A DNA stretch of 64,000 nucleotides from NCBI GenBank assembly GCA_964016885.1, contig OZ024740.1, positions 133,796,001 through 133,860,000 of the forward strand, written 5' to 3'. Origin of the DNA: Eledone cirrhosa. Lineage: Eukaryota. Below are positions 3,721 through 59,976 of the stretch, piece by piece (position 1 is the first letter of the stretch; every line of letters starts with the position of its first letter). The notes under the pieces are model-generated. The model was given only the letters and a program-made list of their open reading frames with translations. It did not search any database and was not told where the DNA came from. Made by a program: the position numbers and the translations under genes.

Positions 3721-5989
3721 TATGGACACTCTTTGTGTTCTGATACGTAACATTAATCCGTCCATCCCTTGCCTCCCAGGTCGCAGGCCCATCGCCATTT
3801 CTTGCAGTATTGGATAGAGACTGCAATATATTTGTTTAATTGTCTCCTCTACCTAAGGCCTTAAGGAGTCCCTTGTTATCGATTGCGAAGGACGATGCGA
3901 TATTACTGCCTTTATTGCTCCTGGCTATATTGCAAATTTTGGTCGTTTTATTTGCACCATTCACCAATTTGGTTTTATTCTCAGGCCTGCCAAACTGGGC
4001 GTTTTAGAGGTGGCCTATTACTTGCCGGGTCGTAGCTACATCACTAGGTTGTGAGTGTTTTGTTGGGAGCTAACAGTATAATCCATGGCTTCATTTCTTT
4101 GAGTAATTTCCCGCTGTTGGTCCATGGTTGCTTATTTGCCCGACAGGAGCCCTCTTATATCGCAACTAAACATCATATCTATAGGCGGTATTGCTATCTG
4201 CGACCTGCGACTCATCCTCTAGCAGAACACCTCTGCCGAGAAACATGCAATGTAGAGATAACTTTTATTCCTATTTAGATCGCTAGCACGCAGTCTTACT
4301 GAGCATGTAAACGAAGATACATTTATGCTTTTGTTTTTTTTTTTCACTGCGGATGTGTCATCAGCATGGCCGTTTTAGCTGCTAATTTTGGTTTAGAAAT
4401 TTTGTTGTTCTCAGTATAATGTAATTTCTTGTGAGAATTCAGTTCTTATGAATAATATCGATTTGCTAGCTATTTGACTGTTATTATCAAAAAGGACACG
4501 AGAGCACGCTTTCTTATAAATTATAACGCCAGTGGACAACATTAATAAATGCCATCTATCGTTAATGCTATAACTTTTTAACCTATTGTTTAAAACAGAT
4601 ACAGGTTTGCTTGAGCATTCCAATTTTTGCAATCGTGTTTATTCAATCTTTATGTTGTACTTGCTCATCATATGGCATGTATTATTGTCAATATTTATGG
4701 AAGGGTTATATGCTATCCTCTCAGTTATTATTCATGCTTCGCTAAGTAACATATCTACTCTACGCAATAAAATTACCCTTCTTTTCGTCTATTCTATGTC
4801 GGTGACTTCTATCTTTTGTATTGCTGCATTGTTTATGGAACCCCGGCATTTTCCATTATGAGAATGTAAGTGTATAAGAATTCCTTTTTACTCGTTTATA
4901 TCACAGTGTATTGAAATGACGTTTTATTTCAATGTACACTTTGCCTATAGCGTCTCTTAATCTACGTTGAAATATGAGGGAGGATTTTCTAAAGTTAATA
5001 AATAAATTGTTGGTGATACATCCACGTTGATTTGCATCTACGTGGTTCCGGGTTTGAAATAAAATAGATGAAGTAAAGGAGTGAGGTGATACTAAGTATA
5101 GAATAAGAAAGAAATGAATGTTAAGGAAGAAGAAAAAGAAGAGCTGAATCTCGTCATGTGTGTATGTGTGTGCATGTGTATGTGCGTGTGTGTATCCATG
5201 AGTATGCGCATGTATGCATTTTGGTAACGCCTGCTTTCACACACCCATTTCTGGCAACTCATAAGTTTATTTAACATGTGGGCCTGTGAGAATCGTGTAT
5301 TAGTGTGGCACTGTAGACCTGCTGTTTCTGAAAGGCATGGATGAGCTTACTTGACCCGAGCAATATATCAGAGTTGCTGAATGTGATCGGCAGTGAAGGT
5401 AATGCCTTCAGACAAGTGGTTATCTAGAAACCTACAGGGGCAGGTTGATCGGACATTATGTGACTAGACACTTTCCTGGGAACATCACGCACTTTAGTAC
5501 ATGTGGGGTTTTGTCTTGAGTTGGCCCATAGGAAGAGGGTATGTAAGAGCTTCACAAATTTGCGCTGTCGTTTACAACTCTCAGACAGGTACCGAAATGA
5601 TTTTCAGAATTGCCAGGGTAGGCATGGAGTAACCACATCGGGTCAACCAGATCGTACTTAGAGGTTTTATTATGTCAACAGATAGAAAAAGTGTAGGATG
5701 TTAACAATTTCAAATGGTCAACTTCACATATCACATATTTGTCATTTACATGGTCCACCAAGTTAGCACACAGAGACTGGGGCCCAGTCAGTGGAAGTTG
5801 AATGTATCTTTCTCGGTGCGCAAAGAGTACAGAAACAGGTGTAGTGCATTAGTTAAGAGACAATTGACAGGAGCAATCATCAGGGAGCCATCAAAGTAGA
5901 GTCGATAAAATTCAGCAAAGAAGCAATAGAGAAAATAGACTAGAAGTAAAGTCAGTAAGCAAATTAGAATCGTAAATCACGCAGATGTC

Positions 5990-6130
5990 ACCTTAACATT
6001 TCATCCTTTCGTGAACAATAACATGAAGCAACAGTAATGCTCTGGGGTTGATTTAATCGACTGTCCCCTCTCCTAAATTGTTGGCCTTGTGCCTAAAGTA
6101 GAAACAATTATTATCATTATTGTTATCATT
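5990..6130 (+). mobile_element. Partial SINE (same family as 2530-2950)
   Basis: TTTCATCCTTTCG..GGGGTTGATTTAATCGACT..TGGCCTTGTGCCTAAAGTAGAAACAATTATTAT. Confidence 0.6.
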
Positions 6131-6660: not shown

Positions 6661-9212
6661 CATTATTGTTATCATTATCTAAAAATATAGTTCTCCCAAC
6701 TTTTACTAAATATGCTGTTTGACTAGTACCAGATCACCCTTATTGAAAAAAAAACACGGAGTAGACTTTCATTTAGATTGCAGAAATGTTTGTACATTTT
6801 GGAATAGATGAATACGATCAAATTCAAAATTAGTCTAAAGTAAACATCTGGCAGTATATTGACATATTATAGTACTTCGCTTCGTCTATAATTCTATATA
6901 AATCACACTGTCTTTACAGTAATAGTGCCAATTACAACTGGAATGGTGTCTAGATTTGTTTTATGTATCATAATAGGTTAAATTTAAAAGCTAATTCGGC
7001 AACATTTCTTTCTTTCTTAGCTAAATTTGACACGGGACTGGTTTTGCTCTGTAGGTATGACAATTACTAAAACATGTTTTAGTCTTACAAAATTGACAGT
7101 TGCAATGTACGTAGCCTGGTTTATCAGATTGTTTGTTGCTGATATTGATGTCATTGTTATTATTGTTGTTATTATTATTAATATTGGTGTTGTTATTGTT
7201 ATTATTGGTAGTAGTAGTAGTAGTATTTGTTATTGCTGTTGATGTAGTAGTAACATTATTATCATTGAAAACAGTTTTACTTATATTAAGATGTGTTTCT
7301 ATACAATCTCTTCGATTTAAACATTTTGTCAAAAAATATCTTGTTAGTTACTTGGTAACCGATCGTTTTTACCACCATGTTTTTCTTTTCTGTACATCTC
7401 AAAATTTCCTGTATTTCTTTGCATATTTCTTTGAATATAACTCTTTTTTTATTTTATTATTGTTATCATTATTATTATTATTATTATTATTATTTTTATT
7501 GCTGTTGTTTTGGTTTTGGTTTTTTCTTGTTGTTATCTCTTAGCGTTATTTCATGCATTTTTGTTTATTTATTTATTCTATTTCAGTGACAGAACATTTG
7601 AGGAAATTTCTATTCTAGTAAAAATTATATATATATAGTGTTTTGAGGGAATTTTTGTAGCTTTCTTTATCAAATGATAACATCGTTTATTACTTTTTTC
7701 CATAGAAATGCCCATTCCGTTTTTGTTTTCTTTTTCAAAAACATCTAAGTGATCATTTAAGAAACATTTCTGTTTTTATCGGCTCTAAACTATCCGAAAT
7801 ACTATACTCCATCTACATGTTTTTCCTAGATCTCTCTGATTACAACGTTGTATTCAAGTACGTTATTGTGTAGCAGCTTACTGTAGAAAAGAACTTTGAA
7901 TATTAATATGAAACGATGAAATGGCTTTCTCAATGGAAGTCTTTAATGTTTTGTATAAGTAGGAGTGGATATAAAATAATTTTGTAAAACGCTAAAATTT
8001 TTACTGCTACAGAAATGTCCCCATCTTTACAAAACTACTACATGTTTCAATCTGGAAAATCAATACAATTTCAGGCTTTTGGTTATATGTCTTAAACGTA
8101 TGCCAAATATACTAATAATGAAAGAGATATCTAAGTGGTGATAGAATCACTATAAAATGTACGAATGTTTTGCTACTGTACAATATGGAAAAATTTGTAA
8201 TTACATGTTATTCCTATAGAGAAAATGAAATGCTTAAAAACTAAGGTAAATGTTAAATACAATCACACAAACATTGCTTAGAATTATGACAGAGGATAAA
8301 CGAAAAATCAATATATAAATGCTTAAAGGAGGATATGGAAGCGATTTGATAGTATATCACATGATGTATTAGGAGCACTTTCTCGAAGCTATTTTACTAA
8401 GACATAAATCATTAAACAGGTGATGATAAGTCAAGTGAATAACTCAACTAGCAACAAAACAAGAATTGCAATTTGAAACTCTAGGATTCAAGACAACCAG
8501 TCATTGTGTGCGTCAACTAGTAAGGGCAAATCATTCCTAAAGCGTTATAACTATAAACATATTTCCTAAGATTAATTACTTATCGATGGTATCCATGTGA
8601 AAAATATTAGGTAAGTTAGTATTAAAATATGTAATGTAGTATTAGATACCTAGTTAGAAATATACATATGGCGAGGGAAAAAAGCATGAGTAACGTTACT
8701 GGTATTATGTTAATCATTTTGGCATATGCAGGAGCCAACTATGAGAACGTTTACCCCATGACTATTATATTTTGTGATGATGGCGACTCTAAGTATTTAA
8801 ACATAGAAAATTATTTCTGTTATATTTAGTTTACAATTCTCTTCGACTACTGAGGTACAACATTTACATCGATTTACTGATTCAACCATTTCTACCCCCT
8901 GTAATAGAACTAATAATGCGGGTGTTGTATCCCCAGGCGTCATTTGCACTTGCTAAATAATATTGGACATTGAGCTAATGATAGCTTTTCCCCGTCATAT
9001 AAGTAATTATAATTTGGTATTTAGTGTTCGTAGGGAGATAACTAGAACACTACGATGCTTGGATCAGTTTTATCGTGGCATCAGACAACCAGCAGATTGC
9101 AGTTTTGCACAAGGACACACCCAAGAGAAGATATATAATGAGACTGTGTGATGTTCATGTCATACTCAAAAATGTTAGCTGCGAAAGTAAAGATAATTTG
9201 AGTATTTTGTAT

Positions 9213-9392
9213 ATCTAGCGATATACGGTATATTTATGAATAAACGTTTTAAAAGCTTTCAAGTATATACATTTGGAAACTGATAACATATCGTGCTGGA
9301 AGCTGTTAAATGGCACTACGTCATCAGTTTCCAAAATCTTAGCTGAAGGCTTTCAAAATGTTTATTTATAAACATACCGTATATTGCTAGAT
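9213..9392. repeat. ~180-bp imperfect fold-back relic related to the 310/313-bp retrozyme units
   Basis: ATCTAGCGATATACGGTATATTTATGAATAAACG.. pairs with ..CAAAATGTTTATTTATAAACATACCGTATATTGCTAGAT. The right arm matches CAAAATGTTTATTATAAACATAC of the 310-bp unit and CATACGGTATATTGC of the 313-bp unit. Confidence 0.6.
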
Positions 9393-9559
9393 AGAAAAAT
9401 AGCCATACTTATATGTATCTAGCTATATTAAAGTGAACACCTTAATTCTATCGATAATTTGTTGCGACAAAAAATTGATCACCAATTTGTATAAACTACC
9501 TCTCTATACAGATTAGTTAGTCATTTTCCACGTTGCATTTCATGAATCGTGTTTCAAAG

Positions 9560-10061: not shown

Positions 10062-11649
10062 GGATCTTATCACGCGTATATTTCTGTAACTATACATGTG
10101 TATATGCAATTACTACATGCTGTATTTCCGAAATATTTTACACATCTTTAGAATTCCATTAGAGGACTGTACTGCAACTTTCTAACTAGCCTTCTCCTTT
10201 CTGAGCTAGTACACCATATCACGTAACCCCAATGATCACAGCTACAAATCTAAAGGTATAGTCAAGCTGTAGTGTCTGGAGATTCCTCATTAGTTCAGTG
10301 TAAATGTTCTTTTTTCGCTAATCTTCAGCACTATTCAACTGTTCAACTGATTTTCTCTACTCTGCGTGCCTTCTTTTCCCTCTCCCATATCGTTACGTCT
10401 CGTCTGGTCTGTTATGCATTTTATTGAGGTTTTGATTAGAATATTCCACCAGTACTCTTTTATATTATACATGTATATTTCCTCCATATCACTGTAAATT
10501 TTTATCTTTATCTCGGAGCTAACCTTTCTATGAATTGCAATGTATAGTGATCGGTCAACTACATGGGTAAATAAATGGGTGATGAGTTCTTTGGACAGCT
10601 GCTTTTGATGTGGGTGACATCTTCAATGTTTATTCCGCAGAGTCTGCATATGTTGTCACATCTAGGTGGTTTACCTGCATCATTACTTTTTTGTAAATTT
10701 AGTATTTCGTTTTTATTTCCTGCTTTTGGATTGCAAACGCATATCCTTCAAAGTGAGAGCTAGTTTTTATCTATATTACTCAGACATTGAAACTTTCTGG
10801 CAACATGGTGATGTGCATGATTTTTTTGCTACTAAGCATTCAGCTTTTCATCCGTGGATTCACTGTAGTATTGTTGTACAATTTCCCTGGGTGTGAATAT
10901 GTATGTATGTGTGTGCCAGTGATTTCTACCTGCAAGCTACATCTGATAGAAATAACTACAACATCTCACTTAAACTCCATCCTTGTGACATTCCTATACA
11001 CACAAACGCGCACACACACACAAACACACATATGTATATACATATATATATATATGGGGGGGGGGGGGGGGTCAATGTATATTAACTTGTACGCAAAGCA
11101 GCCAATGTATACGTTTAAGTTATATCTGTATATATATACAGGATAGACGTAATTGAAACTGCGTATATACATTTAGAGAATGTTAATATGTATATACATG
11201 TTAAAATCTTGAATTTAGGTATTTCCCTATGAAATGAAAATTTAGCATGTTCACATGTATATAGACGAAACATGTACAAATATATATACGCAGTTTTGGT
11301 TACTTCTATGCTGTACATATATGAGTGTATCGTTTATTTCGGCTGCTTATCGCACAACTTAATATATATCATAATTAACTGCCGACATGAGTTTGAAGTA
11401 GCTAAGATCTGCCGTCATAATTTTGGTGGGGTCTAACAGGAATAAAAAAAAATTGACCCATGATGTAAAAGAATGATGTTTGTGACGGTGGGCTTAGTTC
11501 TCGCTTCACATGATCACGTAATGTGAATGCCAGGTGGTTTAGTGGTGTATAAGTGTAATTGGTGAATAACTGATGCTGTACACCAGGTTCGAACACAGAA
11601 GAACCGAACTCCCACTGTCATCGCCTCCACCTCTCTCTCGCCCTCCCCG

Positions 11650-12290
11650 TCTCTCTCTATTAGGACCAAATGGGGTCCCACGTGCTAGCCGGCCAATTCC
11701 ATCTCGTAAGGCTCAGACATGTGTCTAGCCAGCTCGGCGCCTATGGTGGAAAGTAGGGAGGTATCCCTAGGGCCAAGGACACCATCTCCACTGCTAGAGG
11801 CTCGACTGAAAACCTGTCGGAGAGGGACCGATACTTGCAGAGTTAATCCTCCTCAGCCCAAAGTGCAGCAGAACCTGCGATAGTCACAGACGGCACCAGG
11901 TTGCCACTGGAGAATGTGTTGCTGCAATTGACATCCCAGACGAAGGGTTTACCACCGCGGAACGGGAAGATGGTCATGCCGTCTGGTCTTTTGCCGTCCA
12001 CTTGGTCCAGCCTTACTGGCTCGAGCTTGGAGGGGAAGCCTGCAACATCCAAGCCATGCTTTATGACCTCGCCGAGAGCAGCATGGCGTGGGAGGCGGTC
12101 GACACTGTAGCGAGGGGAAAGTGGGTGGAAGCCGAAAGAGTCCAGGGTGGATCCTCAGCGACATTTGTGTGGCCCGCAGATCCGGAGGCCAAGCCTCAGC
12201 GAAACCCCGATGAGCAGGCTATCATTGTCTAGCTGCGTGCCTGTAGAGAAGGAGGGAAAAGCATGGAGCCAGGCACCACTGTGGGGTTGG
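11650..12290 (-). mobile_element. 3' fragment of a CRE-clade non-LTR retrotransposon (restriction-like endonuclease)
   Basis: Minus frame reads [68 protein letters not shown], i.e. a zinc-knuckle remnant plus the RPD..WDV RLE motif. Confidence 0.75.
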
Positions 12291-12398
12291 CAATATACCG
12301 TATGTTTAATTAAAAACATTTACAAGACCATATGATAGCTATCAGTTTTAAAGTAGTGACAATGTCACTTACTTATTTCCGGTGAAAGAAGGGAAGAG

Positions 12399-12438
12399 GC
12401 TGAGAGTCTGTTTCACTCTGGTTGACGTTCATCAGAAC
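12399..12438 (-). ncRNA. Type I hammerhead ribozyme (slightly degenerate)
   Basis: Reverse complement: GTT CTGATGA ACG TCAACCAG AGT GAAA CAG A CTC TC AGC. Confidence 0.65.
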
Positions 12439-12707
12439 CATGCACTCCCTTGCTTCCGCCGAAAATTATACAAGCTGGATTCTTATAGAATTCCAGTAAT
12501 ATTTGGTAATATACCGTATAGACATACGGTATATTGCCAAATATACTATACATACATTCATGTATATATCGCTATTTCAGAGCACCAACCCTAATTCCTA
12601 ATTTTTTCTGGACCGGCAATCGCCCTGTACAATCAGTTCCTGATTATTACCGAAATTCTATAAGAATCAAGCTTCTGTAATTTTCGACGGAAGCAAGGGA
12701 GTGCGTG

Positions 12708-12747
12708 GTTCTGATGAATGACAACAAGCGTGAAACAGACTGTCAGC
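12708..12747 (+). ncRNA. Type I hammerhead ribozyme
   Basis: GTT CTGATGA ATG ACAACAAG CGT GAAA CAG A CTG TC AGC: core intact, stems I-III form, GUC cleavage triplet. Confidence 0.8.
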
Positions 12748-12869
12748 AGCTCTCCCTTCTTTCGCTGAAAATAAGTAAGTGACATTAGTCACTACTTTAA
12801 AACTGATAGCATATGGTCTAAATGTTTTAATTAAACATACGGTATATTGCCAAATAGACTATACATACA

Positions 12870-12903
<34 letters not shown>

Positions 12904-12906
<3 letters not shown>

Positions 12907-15900
12907 CCTACTTCAGTTCCACAAAAGTGGCGCAGGGGTGACTCTGGCTGTCTGATAGCTATGGCAGCGGGACTCAATGTCCTAGAGATGATTCGTCATC
13001 TTCTAGAGTTCAAAAGCTAGCTAAACTGAAGAGGTACCAGCCTGCCCGCCCAGCCAGTGGGATGGCGTCATCTTATGGTTAAAACAGCACGAAGAAAAGG
13101 GCCTTAGTCCCCTGTGCATCAATCGGGCCACTCCACGACGGCGGAGTACAACTCGAGCGACGAGAGGCTGCTAAGAATCACAGGTTCCCGAAGGCCACCA
13201 AGGAACAGGACTAACCTTGCCATATGCACCTACAACTGCAGGTCTTTGGCAGGGGGGCAGGACTGAACCACCTAATGGAGGAGAAGAAGAGGATCATGTG
13301 CGACGTGTTGGGGCTGTGCGAGACCCGCCAGAAGAAGGAGGCGAGTTCGCGATGGCAAGATGGATGCGCCTTGAGACTCGGGAAAGCAGAGGGTGCCAGA
13401 TCGGTCGGAGGTATAGGGTTCATCGTAAGTAAGGAATGGGCTTCGAAGGTCGCTTCTTGCCAGTTCATATCGTCACGGAATGGTGTACTGAACGTGAACC
13501 TCTCAGAGAAGGCCACCCTCAAGATCGTCCAGACCTACGCTCCCACAAGTGCTAGCGATGACGATGAGGTGGAAGAATTCTATCGCCAGCTAGACAAAAT
13601 GCTAGCTGTGAAGTCCACTTACACCGTCGTGATGGGAGACTTCAACGCAACGGTCGGACAGGGACGGCAAGGAGAAGAGTATGTCGGAAGATTCGGCCTA
13701 GGAGAGCGAAATGAGAAAGGAGAGCGTCTGGTCACCATGGCGGAGGCGAGATGGCTCTACATCGGAAACAGCATATTCAAGAAGAAGAAGGAGAAGAGAT
13801 GGACCCGGGTATCGCAAAATTCAGAGCACCGAAACGAGATTGACTACATCTTGGTCGACAAGCGACGCATACTACAGGACGTCTCCATCATAATGCCATC
13901 CAAAACTGGCAGTGATCATCGTCTGGTGAGGGCGAGGGTCGCCATCGACCGGACGAGGGAGAAGAAGGCGCTGCATTTTGGCGTCGAAAGGAGAACGCGT
14001 CCGGGTCTTCAACGAGGTGCATCTGCAGGAAGCTCTTATGCAGGAAAAGTAGCGTCAAGGAGACGGCATAGACGCTGACTACGACTCACTGATAAAGAAA
14101 CTGAAGGAGTGTTTGAGGAAGGCTAAGGGTGTGTGTCCGAGGGAGCGGAAGGGAAGAGTCTCGGAGCAAACTATGAAGTTGCTTGAGAAGAGGAAGAATA
14201 TGAAGAGGGCACCTGAAGATCACCTCGAATATTCCCTTCTCAGCAGAGTGATACGTCAACAACTGAAGAGAGACTTCCAGGCATACCGGATGGAGAAGCT
14301 CCTGAAGGCGGCAAAGGAAAAGAAGAGCCTCAAGAAATGCGAAAGGGTCATGACAATGTACAGATCGGAGGTGACGACCCTGAAAAACACAGCTGGAGTA
14401 CCGGTCAGCGACAAGAGTGAGGCGGAAAAGGTTTGCGAAGACTTCTACACCAAGCTCTTCAAGTCTGCCGGGAATGTGCAGCCGTTGCCGTCACTCCAAC
14501 AGGAAGAAAATGTGCCACCCATCCTTGTCGGTGAGGTCGAAAGAGCCGTCGGCTTGATGAAAAGCGGAAAGGCGCCAGAGAAAGACGGCATAACATCGGA
14601 GGTGTTGAAGTCAGGCGGAGAGCAGCCCTGGAAAATCCTCGCCGAGCAATTCACACTATCTGGACGAGGGAAGAATACCCTCGCAGTTGAAAGAGTCGAA
14701 TACCATCCTGCTATACAAGAAGGGCGATAGAGAAGATCTGAAGAACTACCGACCCATATGCCTGCTGTCTCACGTGTACAAGCTGTTCACGAAGATAATC
14801 TTGAGCAGGTTATCACGTCATCTGGAGGAACAGAAACCGAGAGAGTAAGCCGGCTTCCGGAAAAACTACAGCACGATGGACCACATATTTACCCTGACAC
14901 AACTGCTTGAGCGAGCAAAAGAGTACAAGATGGCTCTTTGCGTCGCGTTCGTAAACTACGAGAAGGCCTTCGACAGAGTCGAATTCAACGCAGTGCTGAA
15001 CTCTCTGCAGAGGCAAGGAGTCGTGGCGCAATACGTTCAACTGCTCAGGAAGGCGAGTTCCGGATGCACCACCGACATAGCTCTGCTGTCATCACCCGTA
15101 CAAGTGCCGGTCGAGAAGGGAGTGAAGCAAGGAGATACGATCTCTCCAAAACTTTTCACCGCGTGTCTCGAGAAGATCATGAGAGGCATTGACTAGCAAG
15201 GCGGTGTCAACATCAACGGCGAGATACTTACCCACCCCCGTTTCACTGTTGACATCGTACTCATCGCTGAAACCACGGATCAGCTTCAGACCATGCTGAC
15301 GGAGCTCGACAGCAAAAGCTCTGCAGTAGGCCTGAAGATGAACCGCATGAAAACGAAGTTCATGCGGTCCGACAACGTACCAACAGGTCGAATGGTGGTT
15401 GGCGGTTATGAAATAGAGGAGGTCGAGGAATACGTCTACCTGGGAAAAGAAGTGAACATGCGCTGAGACATTTAGAGGGAGATCTCGCGGAGAGTAAGGG
15501 CCGGATGGAAGGCGTTCAACGGCATAAGGGATGTGTTCAAGGGGAGGTTGGATACAACCACCCGCGCCAACCACTTCAATAGCACAGTTTTACCTGCAAT
15601 GTTATATGGCAGTGAAACTTGGTCTACAACGAAGAGAGAAGAGCAGAGCTGGTAACGGCTCAAAGAGCCATGGAGAGATCAATGCTAGGAATCGCGTTGA
15701 GAGAGCACACCAGGAGCGAAGTCATCAGACAGAAGTCCGGCGTGAGGGACGTCATCACGGAATATATGCGTAGCAAGTTCAGATGGGCTGGACACGTCGC
15801 CCGGTTCACGAGATAATGGGTGGACCCGCGCAGTTGCCGAGTGGTACCCGCGCAAGCGGAAACGACCTCTCGGAAGGCCTCCAAGAGGGTGGAGTTACGA

Positions 15901-16018
15901 TTTTAGGAATACGATTGGGAATACATGGATGAGGAAAGCACGATCCAGAGAGGAATGGACGGCGTGCTGTGACCAGCGGTGCTGAATGGACGCTCGACAG
16001 ACTGGTCGGTCAAGGTGA
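12904..16018 (+). mobile_element. Near full-length RTE-clade LINE (APE endonuclease + reverse transcriptase), inactivated by frameshifts and stops
   Basis: EN motifs CTYNCRSL, LGLCETR, QTYAPT, VMGDFNA, EIDYIL, GSDHRLV. RT motifs NYRPICLLS, MDHIFTL, YEKAFD, KGVKQGDTISPKLF. RTE C-terminus KFRWAGHVAR..GRPP. The coding region is split over several frames (ORFs at 13224, 14113, 14876, 15619). Flanked by (TA)n on both sides. Confidence 0.95.
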
Positions 16019-16525: not shown

Positions 16526-16604
<79 letters not shown>

Positions 16605-16849
16605 TATGTATGTATACGTACATACATATATGTATACAGACGTACAGTAGCACGCATATATATATATATATATACATATATACACATATGCATACAGGTA
16701 AACATACATATATGCACGCATCAGTTTAGCCGACGTTTATTATAACGCCTGCTTTGTTCGTTTGTTTGTCAACAAATCGAACAGCCTGAATTTATGCCAT
16801 ACGGTGTTAAGGCAACCACGTCACCTTTTTGTTCAACAATGACACAGGA

Positions 16850-16892
16850 ACGATGTACTAGTTTCAAGCTTGTTAGCTATCATCAGCACCGT
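16850..16892 (-). ncRNA. Type I hammerhead ribozyme
   Basis: Reverse complement of the motif at 17238-17280. Confidence 0.85.
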
Positions 16893-16942
16893 TTACCCAT
16901 CTGCCAGATAGTTGAACGTTCGAAACTGTATGCATATGTGTA

Positions 16943-17006
<64 letters not shown>

Positions 17007-17237
17007 TGCTACTGTACGTCTGTATACATATATGTATGTACGTATACATACTTACTTTTAAGTAAGTGCCATACTAAGAGTGAGAAATGAAATTTCGTTT
17101 TCATTTTTTTCAACTTATCGTTTTCGGTATGCCTGACCGATTTAACTCACTCAATATGCAAATTAGGCTGCTCAGCCGTTAATTTTCATAAGGAAAGTAT
17201 ATACTTTCGAACGTTCAACTATCTGGCAGATGGGTAA

Positions 17238-17280
17238 ACGGTGCTGATGATAGCTAACAAGCTTGAAACTAGTACATCGT
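17238..17280 (+). ncRNA. Type I hammerhead ribozyme
   Basis: ACGGTG CTGATGA T AGC TAACAA GCT T GAAA CTAG TA CATCGT: 6-bp stem I, stem II with TAACAA loop, palindromic stem III ACTAGT, GUA site. Confidence 0.9.
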
Positions 17281-17449
17281 TCCTGTGTCTGTGTTGAACA
17301 AAAAGGTGACGTGGTTGCCTTAACACCGTATGGCATAAATTCAGGCTGTTCGATTTGTTGACAAACAAACGAACAAAGCAGGCGTTATAATAAACGTCGG
17401 CTAAACTGATGCGTGCATATATGTATGTGTACCTGTATGCATATGTGTA

Positions 17450-17482
<33 letters not shown>

Positions 17483-17735
17483 GCGTGCTACTGTACGTCT
17501 GTATACATATATGTATGTACGTATACATACATACTTACATTTAAGTAAGTGCCATACTAAGAGTGAGAAATGAAATTTCGTTTTCATTTTTTTCAACTTA
17601 TACATATATATATATATATATGTATGTATGTATATATATGCTTGCGTGGGTGTGTAAGTAAAGTTATACCGATATATATATAAAGTAGTATAGAGATAAT
17701 CGAGACTGCGTAAATGTGTATATATATGTATATAC

Positions 17736-21392: not shown

Positions 21393-21398
<6 letters not shown>

Positions 21399-22352
21399 TA
21401 AGAGGAATTCCAACTTTGTCTGATTTACTCGTTTTATTTACAATCCTTTAAAATATATATAATGGTATTATAATGAAATAGTATGATAGAATATTAAATT
21501 CTAAGTGTTAATTGAACAAGTACTTTCATGCTTTCGCAAACTTCAGGTTCATGAAATGTGGTGACAGTCGAGTTTGCAATTTTCAACTGTAATGAGATGG
21601 GTAAATTTCCTACCTTTTATACATTTTATACAGAGAAAAGTGGCTCCAGAATGCAAAGCCCTGTAAACTGTATTTCGACCAATCAGTGTGTAGTTTCACT
21701 GAATTACTACAGCTGATTGGTTTAAGTGTCACGGCTGGTTGAGCATGCTAACGACCAATAGACATATCCAACGTGTCAATTGTTTTGCTTTTTGAAATGA
21801 TGAAAATAGCATTTTCTATTAATCATCACCATCAACATCACTTTTATTATTATTATTATTATTGTTGTTGTTGTTGTTGTTAGTGGTCGTGGTCATAGTG
21901 GTAGTAGAAGTAATACCCATAGGCGTTATTATTGTTCATTTAGCTTGGGTTTGAATTTATCAATAAAATTCTTTTCTTTGATTTTTCTCTTGATTTCACT
22001 TGGGCTGTGTAATTTGTAGAATGGGAATATTATAAATATTCCCTGACCACATGTTGCCAGGTGGCCGCTTAGGGGTATCTGACGGACATTTGGGTCTCTG
22101 ATTCGTTGACGGTGTACCCGTGCACGTTCCGATGGTGCATTTCCAGTTTGACCGACATATAGTTCTTCACGATTCGGGCATTTAATGCAGTAAATTAGAT
22201 TTCTGCTTTTGCAGTTCATACTTGCATTTGGGAATATTTTTCCAGTTTTTGTTTTCATATATTGACCGGCGTGTATGGATTGACATGTGCCACATCGATT
22301 ATCATTGCATTTAGATACAGTGAATGATTGGTCTTTGTTGTTAAGGTCAAAC
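21393..22352 (-). mobile_element. PLE 3' fragment (Neptune-like Cys linker + GIY-YIG + pLTR), near-identical to 40725-41680
   Basis: ORF 21929-22354 reads [48 protein letters not shown]. The HHR at 21514-21550 has core CTGAAGT (A9>T). Confidence 0.9.
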
Positions 22353-24446: not shown

Positions 24447-24640
24447 CGTATATATATATATATATATAAATATATATATACATATATATATATAAGGATT
24501 AGAATACTGGAGCGTGTTTGAGTCAAACACCCTCTTCGTATTATAGAAATGACAGTAAAAGGTATAGCTCAATGCAGTTAAACAGAGCCGAAAAATTAAG
24601 AGAGTAAAACAAAGAATCCTTTAATACATCAAAAGTTTTT

Positions 24641-24686
24641 ATTAGCCGACAATGTTTCGTCCTATTAAGGACTCATCAGGGCAATC
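24641..24686 (-). ncRNA. Minimal type I hammerhead ribozyme
   Basis: Reverse complement of 27343-27388. Confidence 0.9.
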
Positions 24687-25012
24687 AAACAACAAGAAGT
24701 AATTTCGGCAGATACAAACCAGAAACTCTGAAGAATATGGGGTTTACATATACTAATGTCTTACAAGGATATACGATAAGAAAAATGAGGATAAAACTAT
24801 AATAACTAAGGATGTAGATGACATTAAGAACCATATTACAAATATGGTCCAAAGTCACCAACTTAAATCTAAACAAATTTGGTTATATAGAACAGGAATT
24901 ATATATAACACAGTATAATACATTCTAATACATTCTAATAATAATATATCTATACCAACACTGAAATTCCAAATCAAAAATCAAAAGGTGCAATATATAC
25001 ATGTATATATGT

Positions 25013-25052
<40 letters not shown>

Positions 25053-27342
25053 TACAATACACATATCTATTTTCTATTACACAGAAATTAAGCCACAAAA
25101 ATATTAAAAATAAACATGGTAATAGTGAAAATAATGCTAATATATCTACCCAATATACATGGGGCAATAATTACAAGAAACACTTATAATAAATAATAAA
25201 CAACAAAATTATATAATATAATACAATATAATAAAGTAGAATATATATAAAATAAGAATATATATAATTTCCGGTTAATTTACAGACACAATATAGATGT
25301 CACAGTGAACATTATATTAACAATTACCATATGTACAACATGGTTCATATTGGGTTACATAATAAATGGGGAAATATCAATCATATAATATAATACAATA
25401 ATACAATAATACTCAAAAAAACTATATTGGTACAGGGAACAATTATGATATTACAGAAAAAATGTTGTTACAGAAAAAATATATAGACATCTAACATGAT
25501 ACGTAAAGTCTAAATACCGTAATGTTACATACTACAATATTAAAATATTAAAATATTAAGATATTAAAAAATATAAAGTTTAAGTATCTTAATGTTATAT
25601 ATAATAAACGGTAAGTAAAAAGGATCTATATCATAATGTAATATATCTTAAAAATAGGCATATAATATATAAATAAATACTTATAATTTCAAGGTTAGTA
25701 GACAGACATATGTGGATGAGCAAAGCCAGACAGTGAGTGGTAAATAAAACCAATCAACCGGAAATTACAAAACAAGGCAAATGTAAACACACTTAAGTCC
25801 CGCGTGCATTAAGAAATTTGGTAAGCACCCAGGAAAACGATCATTTTAAATGACTCCCAACCCTATATGATAAATTAATGTTAAAAATATCAAACCCGTC
25901 CGATAAGGTAGTATAAAATTAGCTATAGTCTCAGTCATTAAAATATATAAACTTTAATATATCGTTACAAATGTTTACAAAAAGGAGTAAAATTATACAC
26001 GCAACGATATCTAAAAAACTGACTTAAGTAAAGTTAAGGTAAGCTAATGGGGACAGAATTGATGAAATATATGGAGGGTGCGAAGTAGCATAAAATATAT
26101 TCGATATACTATAATAAATAATAGAACAGAGCATAGAAGAGTGGGGGGGGGTTAATATAATCATATTTAATCTAGAGGAGTTGACAATAAGTTTATGCGT
26201 GCATGGGGGGGGGGGGGTATAATAGATAAATCAGAATAGACTTAGAGATAAAAATATAAATAGAATTAAAAATAAAAATAAAAATAAAAATAAAAATAAT
26301 GTTAAAATTAAAAATTTAATATACTATAGTTATAAATAAATTCGATATACTATAATAATTCGATATACTATAATAAATTATAATAAATTCGATATACTAC
26401 AATAAATAATAGAACAGAGCATAAAAGAGTGGGGGGGGTTAATATAATCATATTCAATCTAGGGGGGTTGACAATAAGTTTATGCGTGCATGGGGGGGGG
26501 GTTTAATAGATAAATCAGAATAGACTTAAAAATAAGAATAGACTTAAAAATAAAAATAAAAATAAAAATATAAATAGAATTGAAAATAAAAAATAAAAAT
26601 AAAAATAATGTTAAAATTAAAAATTAAAGTTAATGATAATAAAAGAATATATAAAAGTAATAACGTGTGTAATCTTATGTATACTAACAAGGTGTAATAG
26701 TGAAGACATAGATACGGTACAGTGGCCAAATGATTATGAGAGCTAGAATGAAGAGTCATCAAAAACCAATGTATATATATATTCTTATTTTATATATATT
26801 CTACTTTATTATATTGTATTATATTATATAATTTTGTTGTTTATTATTTATTATAAGTGTTTCTTGTAATTATTGCCCATGTATATTGGGTAGATATATT
26901 AGCATTATTTTCACTATTACCATGTTTATTTTTAATATTTTTGTGGCTTAATTTCTGTGTAATAGAAAATAGATATGTGTATTGTAATGTGTGTGCGTGT
27001 GTGTGTGTGTGCGCGCACATATATACATGTATATATTGCACCTTTTGATTTTTGATTTGGAATTTCAGTGTTGGTATAGATATATTATTATTAGAATGTA
27101 TTAGAATGTATTATACTGTGTTATATATAATTCCTGTTCTATATAACCAAATTTGTTTAGATTTAAGTTGGTGACTTTGGACCATATTTGTAATATGGTC
27201 CTTAATGTCATCTACATCCTTAGTTATTATAGTTTTATCCTCATTTTTATTATCGTATATCCTTGTAAGACATTAGTATATGTAAACCCCATATTCTTCA
27301 GAGTTTCTGGCTTGTATCTGCCGAAATTACTTCTTGTTGTTT

Positions 27343-27388
27343 GATTGCCCTGATGAGTCCTTAATAGGACGAAACATTGTCGGCTAAT
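27343..27388 (+). ncRNA. Minimal type I hammerhead ribozyme
   Basis: GCC CTGATGA GTCCT TAAT AGGAC GAAA C ATT GTC GGC TAATAAA: canonical core with a G10.1-C11.1 pair and GUC site, followed directly by a polyA signal. Confidence 0.92.
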
Positions 27389-27446
27389 AAAAACATTTGA
27401 TGTATTAAAGGATTCTTTGTTTTACTCTCTTAATACATATATATAT

Positions 27447-29656: not shown

Positions 29657-29800
29657 CATATGTATGTATATATGTATATATATGTATATATATATATATA
29701 TATATATAAATATTTATCCCGGATTCAATCGAGGGTAACCACCACAAGTAAGTAAGGTACTCAATACATAGAAGAGTATAAATATTTAATATAGAAATGG

Positions 29801-29847
29801 CTTCTACAGGATTAGAACTGTTTCATCCGAAAGAAATCATCAGGAAA
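29801..29847 (-). ncRNA. Hammerhead ribozyme of a short dispersed family (other copies 32321-32364 +, 33128-33174 +, 49070-49152 inverted pair)
   Basis: Reverse complement: TTTC CTGATGA TTTC TTTC GGAT GAAA CAG TTCTAATC CTG TA GAAG. Shared downstream tail CCATTTCTATATTAAATATT..GTATTGAGTACC. Confidence 0.7.
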
Positions 29848-30232
29848 GAAAAGAAAATATATATACACCGGGAGCTTCCAATAGTAATGGTTGCATTTTT
29901 TAAGGGTATGTCAATATTTATTTATAAAACTGATCTATATTATATTTTATCTGATGAAAGCAAACCATAATTTGACTTGTGTCCTTGAAATATGTATAAT
30001 GAAATAAATATGGTTTTATAAATATAGTTTCCATTTGTTAATATCATATATACATATATATATATATGCATATATAAACATGTTTATATGTACATATATA
30101 TATATATACATATTTATATATAGATATATTTATATACATACACACAAACACACACACATACACACATATATATATATATACACACACACACAAATATATG
30201 TTTATATATATATATATATACATATATAAATC

Positions 30233-32317: not shown

Positions 32318-32525
32318 GTTATTCCTGATGAATAAAGAATGAAACAGTTCTAGTCGTGTAGAATCACATCTATATTAAAACTATATATAAATATACCTAT
32401 ATACACTCATATATATATATATACATTTATATATATATGAGTGTATATAGGTATATTTAAATATATTTATATATAGGTATATTTTATATATACTCTATAT
32501 GTATACATATATATATATATATATG

Positions 32526-33103: not shown

Positions 33104-33245
33104 TTAGTATAGAAATGGATTCAGGAAAGGCCTGATGATTTACTTCGAATGAAACTGTTCTAGTCTTGTAGAAGCCATTTCTGTATTAAATATTGTATAT
33201 ACTCTATGTATTGAGTACCTTACTTTGGTTCCGCGCCACTGAGCC
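33104..33245 (+). mobile_element. Short HHR element with a remnant inverted 5' arm
   Basis: TCAGG AAAGG CCTGATGA fold-back directly 5' of the core, then the family tail (same family as 29710-29850). Confidence 0.6.
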
Positions 33246-33830: not shown

Positions 33831-33833
<3 letters not shown>

Positions 33834-33948
33834 TTGAAATAAAATGAAAACGAAATTTCATTTCTCACTCTTAGTATGGCACTTACTTAAATGTAAGTAT
33901 GTATGTATACGTACATACATATATGTATACAGACGTACAGTAGCATGC

Positions 33949-33988
<40 letters not shown>

Positions 33989-34420
33989 ATACAGGTACAC
34001 ATACATATATGCACGCATCAGTTTAGCGGACGCTTATTATAACGCCGCTTTGTTCGTTTGTAAACAAACTGAACAGACTGAATTTATGCCATACGGTGTT
34101 AAGGCAACCACGGCACCTTTTTGTTCAACACTGACACAGGAACGATGTACTAGTTTCAAGCTTGTTAGCTATCATCATCACCGTATACCCTTCTGCCAGA
34201 TAGTTGAACGTTCGAAAGTATATACTTTCCTTATGAAAATTAACGGCTGAGCAGCCTAATTTGCATATTGAGTGAGTTAAATCGGTCAGGCATACCGAAA
34301 ACGATAGGTTGAAATAAAATGAAAACGAAATTTCATTTCTCACTCTTAGGAGGGCACTTACTTAAATGTAAGTATGTATGTATACGTACATACATATATG
34401 TATACAGACGTACAGTAGCA

Positions 34421-34478
<58 letters not shown>

Positions 34479-34582
34479 CAGGTACACATACATATATGCA
34501 CGCATCAGTTTAGCGGACGCTTATTATAACGCCGCTTTGTTCGTTTGTAAACAAACTGGACAGCCTGCATTTATGCCATACT
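33831..34582 (-). mobile_element. ~1.6 tandem units of the ~480-bp retrozyme-like family
   Basis: AGGTTGAAATAAAATGAAAACG occurs at 33831 and 34306 (period 475). The HHR at 34142-34184 has C3>A (ATGATGA) and is probably inactive. Confidence 0.8.
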
Positions 34583-35285: not shown

Positions 35286-35331
35286 ACATATATTATATAT
35301 ATATATAATGTATAAAAATCAATACAATATA

Positions 35332-35409
35332 ATTACCTCATTACCAGAGGTTTCCCGAATGAGGCGAGTACGAAATAAACGACTTCATTCGTTCGTCAGA
35401 CGAGGCAAT
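35332..35409 (-). ncRNA. Type I hammerhead ribozyme (PLE pLTR)
   Basis: Reverse complement of 38972-39049, with one loop substitution. Confidence 0.88.
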
Positions 35410-36558
35410 ATAAAACATGGGCAAATACCTAGAAAAACACATCAAGAAAATCAAAAAAAGATATAGATAAATGAAATAGAAATTGAAATATATAAAAATC
35501 TATCAAGAAATCTGTATGTATATACGCTCCCAGATGTGCATATATGTATATGTGTACATGTACATGTATAGTGAGAAAGTGTGCGTAATTCTAAAATAGG
35601 GCAAATGTATCTATATGTCTGTATTATACAAACTGAAATGGTTACATCGTAAATATACGAGTATGAAGGCGCGCGCATAAAACGCCTGGACACTCGTACG
35701 CTTAGGTGCGGAAAGAAAGGAGGTAAGGGAGTGTAATAATTAAAAGAAAAGGGTCAGTCTCGATATATTTATAAAAATATAATAACGATAAATTAGAAAG
35801 AAAAAATTAAAGAAAACAAAAAAAGGGGGGTATATACATACACAGACACGCGTGTCTCACAAAAGAAATGTAAAAATAATTATGCTTATATAAACACGCG
35901 CACTTACACTTCCATACGTTCGATACGTACATACACACACACACACACACATACCTATACTCACGCATATAAACCTGTTTACATGCCCACGTATGAAACT
36001 GAGTAAGTAAAAAAAGGAAGGGGGGGAGAAGAAAAAAGGAACAAAACATAAAACCGAGATGTCAAAAACACGGATATAAAGACACGTACACATACGCATA
36101 ATATATACATACACACACACACAAACACCTGTACACACACACACATATACACATACACACACACATATACATACACACACATACACACACGCACGCGCGC
36201 GCACATACGTAGTCACTCATGTACATATATAAAAAGTATACACACATTAAGACGTTCAGCCATATTGAAATGTGGATAAATAAGTACAAATATAAAATTG
36301 TAAGATAGGCTGCGCAAAAATAAAATAAAAATGAAAATATCTGGATTGAAAAACACAAAAGACAAGTGTAATCAGTTAGTGGAGGAAAAAGGGAAGTAAA
36401 AGAAGGGGAAGTAAAAAATAGAAAATAGGAAGTGGATCGGAGAATAAAGGGGGGGGGGGAATGTGAAGAAAAAATAAAGTGAAAATAAATGAAATTATTG
36501 ACAAGGATAAAAATGAAAGTAAGTCAGAAAGGGTAATTAAAAAGAGAATAATAAGAGT

Positions 36559-38382
36559 TTATGGAGGATAAGTATCTGAAAGTGTGTTAAGTTTATATGA
36601 GCTGGAAAGCAGGTGTGATTTCATGTGTGGGCAACTGGTGAAAATTTCCGTCTTTGTGTTCAGGCATGTCTTTGGTGATTTAAGATTTTGCAATATCCAA
36701 AATTTTTCATTTATGCAGAGCGTGCATTTTCTTGTTCCTCTAGCATATTTTTTAGATTGGTTCAAAATTGATCAATGTAGTTTATATTGGATGCCTTGGT
36801 CTTTCAAATCCCAAATTCTGCTAGCCAGAGCTGTTGTAAATCTTTTTTCTGGATGTCGAAAGGATGCGACATGTGAGTAATAACGCGTTTTGAATCTGTC
36901 TTGCGTCATACCCACATATCGTTCACTGGTGGCTGGATGGTTGTTGCTGATGGTTGTCACTTTAGCCGCATATACAATGGCTTTGGTGTTGCATTTACCT
37001 TGTAATGGGCATTCACTTTTGATTCTACAGGAGCAAGTTTGATTTTCTCTAGGTGATATTTTGTTGAGGATATAGGACTTAATAGGGGGACCGCAGGAAT
37101 AGCTAATTTTAACACAGTTTCTGTTAAAGATCTTATAGTATCTATGTGTTCTAGGGAAATGTTTATCTAGGAGTTCTAGGAATTTTTTGCCTACATTAGT
37201 TTTAACTGCTAGAGAGTAGGGGGGTGTGAACCAGATTATTTTTCTTTTCCTATTTTTATGTTTAAAAGAGTTAGTATAGTTGGGTATGTACTTAATCGGT
37301 TCGCTAAATCCGCTATTTTGGAGGGCTTTATTATAGTAGGAGGATGCCTTATTGAAAATAGCTTCTGAGGAAGAGAGGGTGGAGATCCTACGGCTAATAT
37401 TAGGGATAAGGTTTTTAAAAACTATAGGAGGATGGCAAGAGCCTTTATTTATATATTTTAAATTTTCATTAGGTTTATGGTATGGTTTATAAGAAGCAGT
37501 AGGCAAATCTAGGTTTATATCTAGGAAATCTACGTTGGAAAGGTTAGTGTCAATAGTAATTTTAAGATTAAAACTAGCGAAGGATTTTATTAAGTCTTTC
37601 CTTAATCTATCTAAGTTATGGCCTATGGTAGTATGGGAAAGTATTAGACCATCATCGCGATAAAGCCCCAAAATATGGTTCGGAAATTTTTCTTTAAGTG
37701 TATGTAAGAGGAATAGGCCGACCAGATCACAAACCTCGGCACTGTCATAAGAGCCCATTGAGACATCGAATGGGTTTTCTGGGTTAGATATTTTTACCCA
37801 AGTGTCATTATCATTAAAAAGTAGAGTGTTCCTAGCATGCAAGATGACATCCTCTTCAATATCGGAGATATTAGTGAACCCTCTAGCGAAATTTAAAGCT
37901 TTCACTAAAAGGGTCTGAGTAATAGATGGGTAGAAATCTACGATGTCAAATTGGGTGAATCTAGAACTGATTTTGTTTTTAATATTATTAAACCAATGTA
38001 CTACGGAAGAGCTATTTATCCATTGGAGTAATTTAGAATTACTTCTAATGTGTGTATTTAATTTATTTAAAATTTTTTTGCTGGCAGGACCAATATCAGT
38101 CTTAGCAGGGTTGATTAATCTACAACTAGGGCGATTAATAAAGTCGGGTTTATGATCTTTAAGGGTGATATACGCAGAACGTTTAGCAGGTTTTTCTGTC
38201 CTATTATCTATTTTTAAAGAAACAGCTAATTCTTTAGCTTCCTTATTTATATTATGGTACGTATATATATTAGCTATTTGGTATTTAGAGGTGATATTAT
38301 CTATTAATAGTTGGTCGTGTAAATTATTATTAACTTCGTATAGGTTTTTAGTTTTATCTGAGAAGATGAACTTATTATTAGA
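36559..38382 (-). pseudogene. PLE reverse transcriptase-GIY-YIG ORF, 5'-truncated, with one in-frame TGA
   Basis: RLINPAK, QFDIVDFYPSI, FDVSMGSYDSAEVCDLVG, LYRDDGL, VDFLDI, IIWFTPPYS, IVYAAKV..YVGMT..RYYSH, CTLCINEK, SCPH. The TGA at 36772-36774 replaces a Trp conserved in the sister copies. The annotated N-terminal MPTYET comes from the inverted arm. Confidence 0.93.
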
Positions 38383-38971
38383 AGTTTCATACGTGGGCAT
38401 GTAAACAGGTTTATATGCGTGAGTATAGGTATGTGTGTGTGTGTGTGTATGTACGTATCGAACGTATGGAAGTGTAAGTGCGCGTGTTTATATAAGCATA
38501 ATTATTTTTACATTTCTTTTGTGAGACACGCGTGTCTGTGTATGTATATACCCCCCTTTTTTTGTTTTCTTTAATTTTTTCTTTCTAATTTATCGTTATT
38601 ATATTTTTATAAATATATCGAGACTGACCCTTTTCTTTTAATTATTACACTCCCTTACCTCCTTTCTTTCTGCACCTAAGCGTACGAGTGTCCAGGCGTT
38701 TTATGCGCGCGCCTTCATACTCGTATATTTACGATGTAACCATTTCTGTTTGTATAATACAGACATATAGATACATTTGCCCTATTTTAGAATTACGCAC
38801 ACTTTCTCACTATACATGTACATGTACACATATACATATATGCACATCTGGGAGCGTATATACATACATATTTCTTGATAGATTTTTATATATTTCAATT
38901 TCTATTTCATTTATCTATATCTTTTTTTGATTTTCTTGATGTGTTTTTCTAGGTATTTGCCCATGTTTTAT

Positions 38972-39049
38972 ATTGCCTCGTCTGACGAACGAATGAAGTC
39001 GTTTATTTCGTATTCGCCTCATTCGGGAAACCTCTGGTAATGAGGTAAT
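38972..39049 (+). ncRNA. Type I hammerhead ribozyme (PLE pLTR), long stems I and II
   Basis: ATTGCCTCGT CTGACGA A CGAATGA..TCATTCG G GAAA CC TCT GG TA ATGAGGTAAT. Confidence 0.88.
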
Positions 39050-39149
39050 TATATTGTATTGATTTTTATACATTAAATTTTGCTCTGATACTTACATAGA
39101 GCACTCTTCATTTCTATGACCTTTTCTGTTTCCAACGGAAATTTCAATA

Positions 39150-40279: not shown

Positions 40280-41680
40280 TATTATAAACACACAGACAAC
40301 CATTAATATCTGAATTTTAAGTCGTGCCATCCACCTCATACAAAACGCAACATCCCATACTGCCTAGCCAGAAGAATTTGTACCATTGTAGAAGATACGA
40401 ATACCAGGTACAAACGCCTAACAGAACTAAGAGAATTTTTGCTCAAACAAAAATACCCATCTCTACTTATAGAAAATGGAATACAGCGGGCTATAAAAAT
40501 ACCTATACAACAACTTAGAACAACCCAAGGAAGAAGAAACCAAGAACTGGTATTACCATTTATAATGACACACAACCCATGTCACCAGAATATCTTCAAC
40601 ACTGCCAAAGCAAACCTACCGATCATTGCTCAAAGTAATGAATTAAAAAGCTTAATCACAGATCGATCTTTGACTCTTAGTAAAAGACAGCCAAAAAATT
40701 TGAAGCAATTGCTAACAAAAGCAAAGTTTGACCTTAACAACAAAGACCAATCATTCACTGCATCTAAATGCAATGATAATCGATGCGGCACATGTCAATC
40801 GACACGCCGGTCAATATATGAAAACAAAAACTGGAAAAATATTCCCAAATGCAAGTATGAACTGCAAAAGCAGAAATCTAATTTACTGCATTAAATGCCC
40901 GAATTGTGAAGAACTATATGTCGGTCAAACTGGAAATGCACCATCGGAACGTGCACGGGTACACCGTCAACAAATCAGAGACCCAAATGTCCGTCAGATA
41001 CCCCTAAGCGGCCACCTGGCAACATGTGGTCAGGGAATATTTATAATATTCCCATTCTACAAATTACACAGCCCAAGTGAAATCAAGAGAAAAATCAAAG
41101 AAAAGAATTTTATTGATAAATTCAAACCCAAGCTAAATGAACAATAATAACGCCTAGGGGTATTACTTCTACTACAACTATGACCACGACCACTAACAAC
41201 AACAACAACAACAATAATAATAATAATAAAAGTGATGTTGATGGTGATGATTAATAGAAAATGCTATTTTCATCATTTCAAAAAGAAAAACAATTGATAC
41301 GTTGGATATGACTATTGGTCGTTAGCATGCTCAACCAGCCGTGACGCTTAAACCAATCAGCTGTAGTAATTCAGTGAAACTACACACTGATTGGTCGAAA
41401 TACAGTTTACAGGGCTTTGCATTCTGGAGCCACTTTTCTCTGTATAAAATGTATAAAAGGTAGGAAATTTACCCATCTCATTACAGTTGAAAATTGCAAA
41501 CTCGACTGTCACCACATATCATCAACCTGAAGATTGCGAAAGCATGAAAGTACTTGTTCAATTAACACTTAGAATTTAATATTCTATCATACTATTTCAT
41601 TGTAATACCATTATATATATTTAAAGGATTGTAAATAAAACGAGTAAATCAGACAAAGTTGGAATTCCTCTTATTAATAT
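40280..41680 (+). mobile_element. 5'-truncated Neptune-like PLE (RT thumb, Cys linker, GIY-YIG, pLTR), frameshifted
   Basis: [63 protein letters not shown] / NLIYCIKCPNCEELYVGQT. Confidence 0.92.
41524..41558 (+). ncRNA. Minimal type I hammerhead ribozyme
   Basis: AAC CTGAAGA T TGC GAAA GCA T GAAA GTAC TT GTT: palindromic stem III AGTACT. Confidence 0.85.

Positions 41681-49859: not shown

Positions 49860-49913
<54 letters not shown>

Positions 49914-54800: not shown

Positions 54801-54846
<46 letters not shown>

Positions 54847-59921: not shown

Positions 59922-59976
<55 letters not shown>

Follow-up and report, generated by a model that had tools for sequence, protein, structure and literature searches.

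The element at 12287-12873 of the window, by which we mean the whole 64,000-nucleotide stretch analysed (Eledone cirrhosa, assembly GCA_964016885.1, contig OZ024740.1, positions 133,796,001 to 133,860,000 of the forward strand), raises the question of whether its 313-bp unit belongs to a retrozyme family separate from the 310-bp units arrayed elsewhere in the window, and by which signal and enzyme it could have been inserted.

The element was found to consist of two head-to-head arms of the 313-bp unit; of the span given in the preliminary description (12289-12875), the start was corrected to 12287 and the element ends at 12873. The unit length is exactly 313 bp, as the direct repeat at 12519 recurs at 12832, and the plus strand holds only ~1.13 units. 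The left arm is without ~100 nt, including all three conserved blocks named in the preliminary description; at its outer end, the last 20 nt before the usual end are missing and no (TA)n flanks it. Beyond a 20-nt stub, the minus strand jumps ~100 nt at a 3-nt microhomology. The element, its neighbours and the sister array are composed as follows:

11690-12289, minus strand: left neighbour, a non-LTR retrotransposon fragment with a C-terminal restriction-like endonuclease, cut at both ends
12287-12501, minus strand: left arm, the inverted counterpart of unit positions 12645-12853
12395-12440, minus strand: damaged type I hammerhead of the left arm, whose core (12435-12429) is intact
12499-12546, no strand: inversion centre, where 20 nt of the unit start, as an inverted stub, face the right arm
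12519-12831, plus strand: one full 313-bp unit, non-coding (no ORF of at least 120 aa), fold z -3.6
12528-12565, plus strand: two hairpins common to both families, the second with an AC-rich loop containing the short 3' end
12561-12595, plus strand: stretch corresponding to the PLE 'tail', spanning the ~35 nt that separate the short 3' end from the long one, as set by the 310-array ends
12571-12583, plus strand: small GCU..AGC hairpin within the tail equivalent
12596-12670, plus strand: post-tail block, 54/77 columns identical between the families (~70%), with three short invariant words
12680-12772, plus strand: type I hammerhead of the right arm, with a long helix I and a palindromic stem III
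12806-12810, plus strand: upstream partner of the tail (predicted pairing)
12822-12838, plus strand: palindromic hairpin at the inversion point of both elements
12832-12873, plus strand: beginning of a further unit, which stops at the short 3' end and differs from the first unit by 2 substitutions in 42
12873-12903, no strand: (TA)15 target microsatellite
12904-16017, plus strand: right neighbour, a broken AP-endonuclease LINE with (TA)n on both sides
54834-59925, no strand: 310-bp sister array, 9.2 + 7.3 units head to head, short end left, long (tailed) end right

By its testable features, the element is assigned to the non-LTR retrozymes, of which many animals already provide examples. The unit of 313 bp is non-coding, has a low GC content (~0.37) and lies within the size range of 150-450 bp; the core and topology of a type I hammerhead are present in both arms, with damaged stems; and head-to-tail repetition is seen in the 1.13 units here, in contig joints and in the 16.5-unit sister array. 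Contigs matching 11700-13200, neighbours included, numbered 9,921, 10,980 and 10,156 in runs X1-X3 of one sample and 42 in run X4, which bears a second organism label; the head-to-tail joints of the unit in X1-X3 run from 12817/12819 to 12523. For a retrozyme to be called active, Li, Clavereau and Pollet (2026, bioRxiv 10.64898/2026.07.22.740005) ask for a minimum of two successive units bearing complete ribozymes; the 313 copy falls short of this, as a statement on the copy and not on the family: its two arms, which lie on opposite strands, each hold a single damaged ribozyme.

A pattern scan of the window located the right-arm hammerhead with its core at 12711-12717 and 12732-12735, a GUC site at 12742-12744 and the stem III ACAG-A-CUGU, while revealing further hammerheads in other elements. 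The 310 unit carries a loopless ACGCGU stem III and a GUA site, with one type I hammerhead per array unit, so that the stems differ between the units, as had been claimed; this description fits the right arm, but the left arm has a CUC site, a broken stem III and one stem II pair lost. In the right arm, stems I and II each contain one private mispair, and judged by pairing both ribozymes of the 313 element are damaged. Two copies of the 310 ribozyme were predicted to co-fold via an intermolecular stem III, corresponding to the dimer form described for hammerheads of such a stem III type in the available part of PMC4209133. An Rfam search of the window gave no match at gathering score and none to a hammerhead model; within the element, 15 sub-threshold matches were hairpin artefacts. 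The 310 array itself comprises 16.5 units with 3 true differences in 5091 bases and intact dimer-type ribozymes. On this basis it is the best candidate for an active retrozyme.

Alignment of the 313 with the 310 unit supported the size and module order they were said to share, and the homology extended over the whole length instead of being confined to short AT-rich words, the outcome named beforehand as speaking against kinship. BLASTN gave 72.5% identity over 222 nt (E 4e-27), global alignment 225/327 identical columns and MAFFT 198/315; the local score was 130, whereas 1000 dinucleotide shuffles averaged 19 and reached 35 at most. All three named identity blocks proved exact (12563-12584, 22 nt; 12610-12619; 12634-12642), and a fourth invariant block was found at 12655-12664. 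Identity between the families was 70-76% in 12519-12670 and 44-48% beyond the cleavage site. The helices are kept: distal helix I has 14/14 pairs in the 310 unit and 13/14 in each 313 arm, with four positions changed on both sides between the families; hairpin 1 has 8/8 pairs in both, and hairpin 2 has 6/6 and 5/6, with one two-sided change in each hairpin, these compensatory changes being counts over three sequences and not a statistical covariation test. The 313 and 310 units each folded better than 100/100 shuffles.

The longest exact run, 12563-12584, has a permutation P of ~0.002 given the overall identity, and its position relative to the insertion ends is informative. Both outer ends of the 310 array lie in (TA)n and differ by ~35 nt, and the right end of the 313 element, also in (TA)n, is the same base as the shorter of the two, falling in the AC-rich loop of hairpin 2. 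The invariant run falls within the ~35-nt tail set in this way; the tail is seen in one insertion, the 310 array, with the 313 copy retaining the short end alone. Short and long ends are also present in six other paired-arm elements of the window. According to the available part of PMC8557442, an inverted 5'-truncated copy, a 30-40-bp tail and a microsatellite target are hallmarks of PLEs. Here, an inverted copy adjoins the 5' end with a palindrome at the junction, and (TA)n is the target, as (TA)15 at the 313 right end and at both ends of the 310 array. The two elements invert at the same palindromic hairpin (310 centre 57676, same register), which is one of four hairpins of at least 6 bp in the 310 unit; palindromes at PLE inversion junctions are on record (PMC3846280, as far as available).

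[quoted passage not shown] Since the invariant run lies inside the corresponding stretch, recognition by an RT-endonuclease is the best reading of the conserved block: the 22 nt would be a handle for a PLE RT-endonuclease, as suggested by two insertions, and would have stayed invariant because the two families rely on one enzyme or on related ones. The 22 fixed nucleotides inside a PLE tail thus point to a signal read by the mobilising enzyme. The run was also predicted to pair with the upstream partner, with a probability of ~0.9 in 313 and ~0.6 in 310, and it could be conserved by RNA pairing alone. A metagenome scan with a 21-nt block returned no matches. The search among PLE pseudo-LTRs suggested in the preliminary description was carried out within the window, where no PLE pseudo-LTR aligned to the unit beyond the ribozyme core and a profile search gave no pseudo-LTR homologue, the best such matches having E values of at least 1.

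Of the two functions guessed for the block, the first, RT recognition, has thus gained support via the PLE tail. The second, that the block serves chiefly as an internal promoter for RNA polymerase II, with a TATA-like run at 12563 and an initiator-like word 30 nt downstream, appears doubtful on balance. Both units have the initiator-like word exactly 30 nt past the TATA-like run, the word being matched to what we presume to be the initiator consensus; the block lies ~150 nt before the ribozyme, and with an internal promoter each new insertion would bring its own. The post-tail block, 70% identical against 44-48% in the 3' part, has RNA hairpin loops or a promoter as candidate roles, and promoters have been reported in PLE pseudo-LTRs (PMC8557442 and PMC3846280, in the parts available). 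However, 7-10% of shuffles yield the same spacing, and conservation is strongest at the run's GC-containing end, a part that is RNA-paired by prediction and matches the insertion ends. A promoter would be compatible with RT recognition, and is the weaker of the two proposals. A snRNA-type upstream promoter was also considered, in view of a likeness to an insect PSE and of newt satellite-2 as a precedent; it was dropped as there was no host snRNA gene for comparison.

Taken with the anatomy of PLE insertions, these data indicate that the 313 element is probably a decayed non-autonomous PLE insertion of the non-LTR retrozyme kind. In the proposed cycle, tandem copies would be transcribed; type I hammerheads with palindromic stem III, a structure that is seen, would, as dimers, cleave the RNA into ~310-nt monomers or circles; a PLE RT-endonuclease, judging from the genomic ends and PLE biochemistry, would bind the hairpin cluster and tail, nick (TA)n and start cDNA at either of two sites ~35 nt apart; and the strands would be joined at the fixed palindrome into head-to-head arms. 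Decay of the 313 copy is evident from private substitutions, indels, the ~100-nt internal loss and the clipped left end. Counting against this reading, the one PLE tested in vitro has its protein-binding region within the ORF, and ribozyme cleavage was dispensable (PMC11167929).

It is improbable that the element is instead a doubly truncated remnant of an autonomous PLE, made of two pseudo-LTRs and without a cycle of its own. One ribozyme per arm and 1.13 units would suit such a remnant, and paired short arms are common PLE remnants according to the available part of PMC4209133. In addition, 10 X3 contigs and 1 X4 contig leave the unit at 12670 into the same foreign, ATG-containing sequence, which may represent the body of an element that is longer or autonomous; the alternative continuation is absent from the window. 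A remnant is, however, hard to reconcile with a unit that closes head to tail at offset 313 and in contig joints, with a sister array of 16.5 units without an ORF, and with covariation all round the unit. An ORF combining RT and GIY-YIG, by which an autonomous PLE is defined, is absent from the 313 element.

A candidate for the enzyme of the proposed retrozyme cycle is encoded in the window. The ORF at 36772-38487 has the motifs DKT and CxCX5C, which define the (TA)n-targeting Hydra clade of PLEs in the available part of PMC8557442, and when inspected by eye it looks similar to Hydra-1_Obim, published from Octopus bimaculoides. Two more Hydra-type remnants were found at 17822 and 44500-45800. 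The stretch 35303-39078 is a 5'-truncated Hydra-clade PLE with a 571-aa open frame and inverted terminal repeats 99% alike; its tail measures ~77 nt against the usual 30-40 nt.

A hairpin motif just past the short end was present in 4/8 tails tested in the window, with the qualification that the motif is short, was defined post hoc and was relaxed at one position so that the retrozyme would fit, and that 310 and 313 are not independent. The positive tails are those of 310, 313 and both elements with Hydra-type ORFs; the negative ones belong to a Neptune/Nematis-like element (by its linker) and three ORF-less elements. The chance of the motif per 35 nt is 1.2-1.3% in shuffles and 3% by window density. 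Among six published Hydra consensi in the available supplement of PMC8557442, inspection by eye found it present in three, as a variant in one and missing from two, and the coral and sea cucumber Hydra PLEs there have the tail hairpin in common with the retrozyme tail. A metagenome scan with the motif gave at least 118 loci; among the matches listed, none had Hydra RT similarity, and the loose core upstream occurred in 2 of the 121 listed, as expected by chance. We tentatively name a Hydra-clade PLE as the most likely mobiliser, from motifs in the DNA. More speculative is a radiation of retrozyme families within one animal lineage, probably octopod, mobilised in trans by Hydra-clade PLEs, in which the 22 nt would act as a clade-specific RT/endonuclease handle via the shared tail hairpin, a hairpin that in the retrozyme could pair with the upstream strand instead and thereby work as a switch; this is possible, with the odds against it. 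If true, it would name an enzyme and a cis-signal for an animal retrozyme, which are absent from the literature surveyed.

The two arms had been described as visibly different, and they differ at 15 of 206 bases (7.3%) plus 6 indel events, the full alignment having 191 identical positions, 15 substitutions and 12 gap columns. The distance between the 313 arms is p = 0.073 (95% CI 0.041-0.117), against 0.001 (3/2249, 0.13%) for the arms of the 310 array, although arrays can be homogenised, which would make the 310 array look younger than its true age. By arm divergence, the 313 insertion is older than the 310 array, and the copy is probably dead. The term 'older' used in the preliminary description thus holds for the insertion but does not carry over to the family, since a single old copy gives the age of the insertion and not that of the family.

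The divergence would say less about age if the arms had been copied from two RNA molecules of a diverse family, as the 313 insertion then need not be old. Most contigs on the locus are only 80-95% alike, and retrozyme RNA populations are heterogeneous according to the available part of PMC7229834. Yet pairs are broken by private changes in each arm; differences are also found in the direct repeat within one arm (2/42) and between the fold-back stub and the unit start (1/20); and the indels and clipped end suit decay in place. We therefore regard two source RNAs as quite improbable and keep to decay of one insertion. Past 12287, the loose ends of 40-55 contigs per run carry on with the missing unit sequence.

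The contigs also bear on how far the lineage has diversified. They include a junction variant between the 313 and 310 families, and X4 pieces that are ~96% and ~87% alike as well as one 310-type tail. An X1 contig is identical over 12568-12785; this exact match is not independent, since X1 may be the source sample. The claim that the lineage has diversified is borne out, as the variants among the contigs listed point to further related forms beyond the two families, and the lineage may cross a species label. Over 12516-12668, summed contig depth greatly exceeded that on the ribozyme core; since such depth is no measure of copy number and the block is AT-rich, it was left unused as support.

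With the arms distinguished, the independence of the two families could be judged. In a three-way alignment of both arms with the 310 unit, 200 columns were ungapped, of which 107 were alike in all, 73 set both 313 arms against 310 and 20 were private to one arm; each arm lies at 28-29% distance from the 310 unit. That the 313 unit is merely a decayed copy of the 310 family, as the matching size, order, ends and inversion centre might suggest, is refuted by the excess of arm-shared over private differences, by the 28-29% against only 7% between the arms and by the compensatory changes. Because of the 73 shared against 20 private differences and these compensatory changes, the 313 unit is, on sequence comparison, a sister family of 310 with helix I kept by compensation, in agreement with the independent sister status first claimed for it.

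The flanks were also described beforehand, as a CRE fragment on the left and a (TA)n that received an RTE LINE on the right. On the left, a minus-strand RT/restriction-like-endonuclease fragment does adjoin the element. Translated with X at two stops, it matched 21 of 844 candidate proteins at their C-termini, 12 of these having a recorded RT domain, at 41-62% for the RT-bearing proteins; the order of RT followed by zinc knuckle and restriction-like endonuclease is of CRE type, and the nearest solved structures are R2 proteins (E ~1e-6). None of the homologues is named CRE, however, and since all 21 of the 21 listed are unnamed or 'uncharacterized', the label follows from the motifs, by which we take the fragment to be CRE-like. 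Its coding frame continues right up to the left arm and no TA intervenes; the simplest explanation would be a later deletion. On the right, an AP-endonuclease LINE, presumably RTE-like, has (TA)n on both sides; that this (TA)n received the LINE presupposes an order of insertion. As the longest contigs are ~18-19% different on the left fragment and ~10% on the right LINE, the former looks older and the latter of similar age to the 313 copy. At 11530-11600, a short way to the left of the CRE-like fragment, lie tRNA-like A and B boxes.

Several other elements were observed in the window. The fold-back element at 9203-9460 looks like a third, more diverged relative of 313/310: its scores of 62 and 68 exceed shuffle maxima of 52 and 40, with a profile E of only 0.02-0.1, and it is the best tile outside both families, with a possible compensatory change in the tail-upstream pairing. 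Another retrozyme-like family, with a ~478-bp unit and arms 99% alike, is present at 16600-17600, 33832-34581 and 59978-60160; its hammerhead is related, with the same loop II word, and a piece of a relative lies beside the 310 array. A further four hammerhead elements with paired arms (24595-27434; 44256-46071; 49278-49865; 21396-22352 with 40726-41676) have tails of ~45 to 110 nt, and short hammerhead-bearing fragments of one further family lie in (TA)n at 29748-29848, 32318-32400, 33131-33225 and 49011-49153. A tRNA-derived SINE family, which we take to be of the common octopus type, occurs at 2526-2935, 5974-6111, 61768-61832 and 63549-63689; this family and the likeness of the Hydra-type ORF to Hydra-1_Obim make an octopod host probable. 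A 208-bp palindrome, 98% perfect, occupies 42746-42953, and an old 68% palindrome 11075-11369.

Retrozymes are held to derive from or depend on PLEs, with many families per genome and monomers common (Li et al.), and non-autonomous tandem PLE clients are on record in Chlamydomonas (available part of PMC8557442); several retrozyme families per genome and PLE descent are thus already in print. The evidence of Li et al. is co-occurrence and pseudo-LTR homology in Xenopus, whereas here it is insertion anatomy, namely tail, inversion and TA target, with no pseudo-LTR homologue found in this window. In the literature surveyed, whose coverage is partial and to which the supplements of both retrozyme papers may add, neither this anatomy nor the Hydra tail motif was found described for retrozymes. 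None of the listed works combining Octopus and hammerhead ribozyme treats octopus retrozymes, and the main text of the O. vulgaris repeat annotation does not contain the word 'ribozyme'. The 313/310 pair amounts to a natural mutational scan, with ~30-37% of columns changed, helices kept by compensation and 22 nt fixed, and it supplies a defined template and a candidate enzyme for an in-vitro test of animal retrozyme movement.

The metazoan non-LTR retrozymes of Cervera and de la Pena (2020, PMC7229834), as far as available, likewise have a ~310-nt, low-GC, non-coding unit, a type I hammerhead with a weak palindromic helix III and head-to-tail copies, and likewise can form two similar-sized families in one genome, as in axolotl, and co-exist with PLEs. 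The 313 copy differs in being without tandem ribozymes and known here from DNA alone; 'inverted' and 'microsatellite' do not occur in the available main text of that paper. Hydra-clade PLEs (Craig et al. 2021, PMC8557442, available part) share the (TA)n target, the inverted copy plus tail, palindromic-stem-III hammerheads and a GCU..AGC-type hairpin just past the short end. Unlike these, the retrozyme has no ORF, shows circular permutation at unit length and has a shorter tail hairpin with one mismatch, and the distance from ribozyme to short end is ~130 nt as compared with 40-85 nt. For the Poseidon PLE PAc of Anolis (Frangieh et al. 2024, PMC11167929), in vitro mapping placed the starts within the ORF, whereas those of the retrozyme are inferred from two insertions; in both, ~35 nt separate the two 3' ends, the short one lies in an AC-rich hairpin loop and the target is AT-rich.
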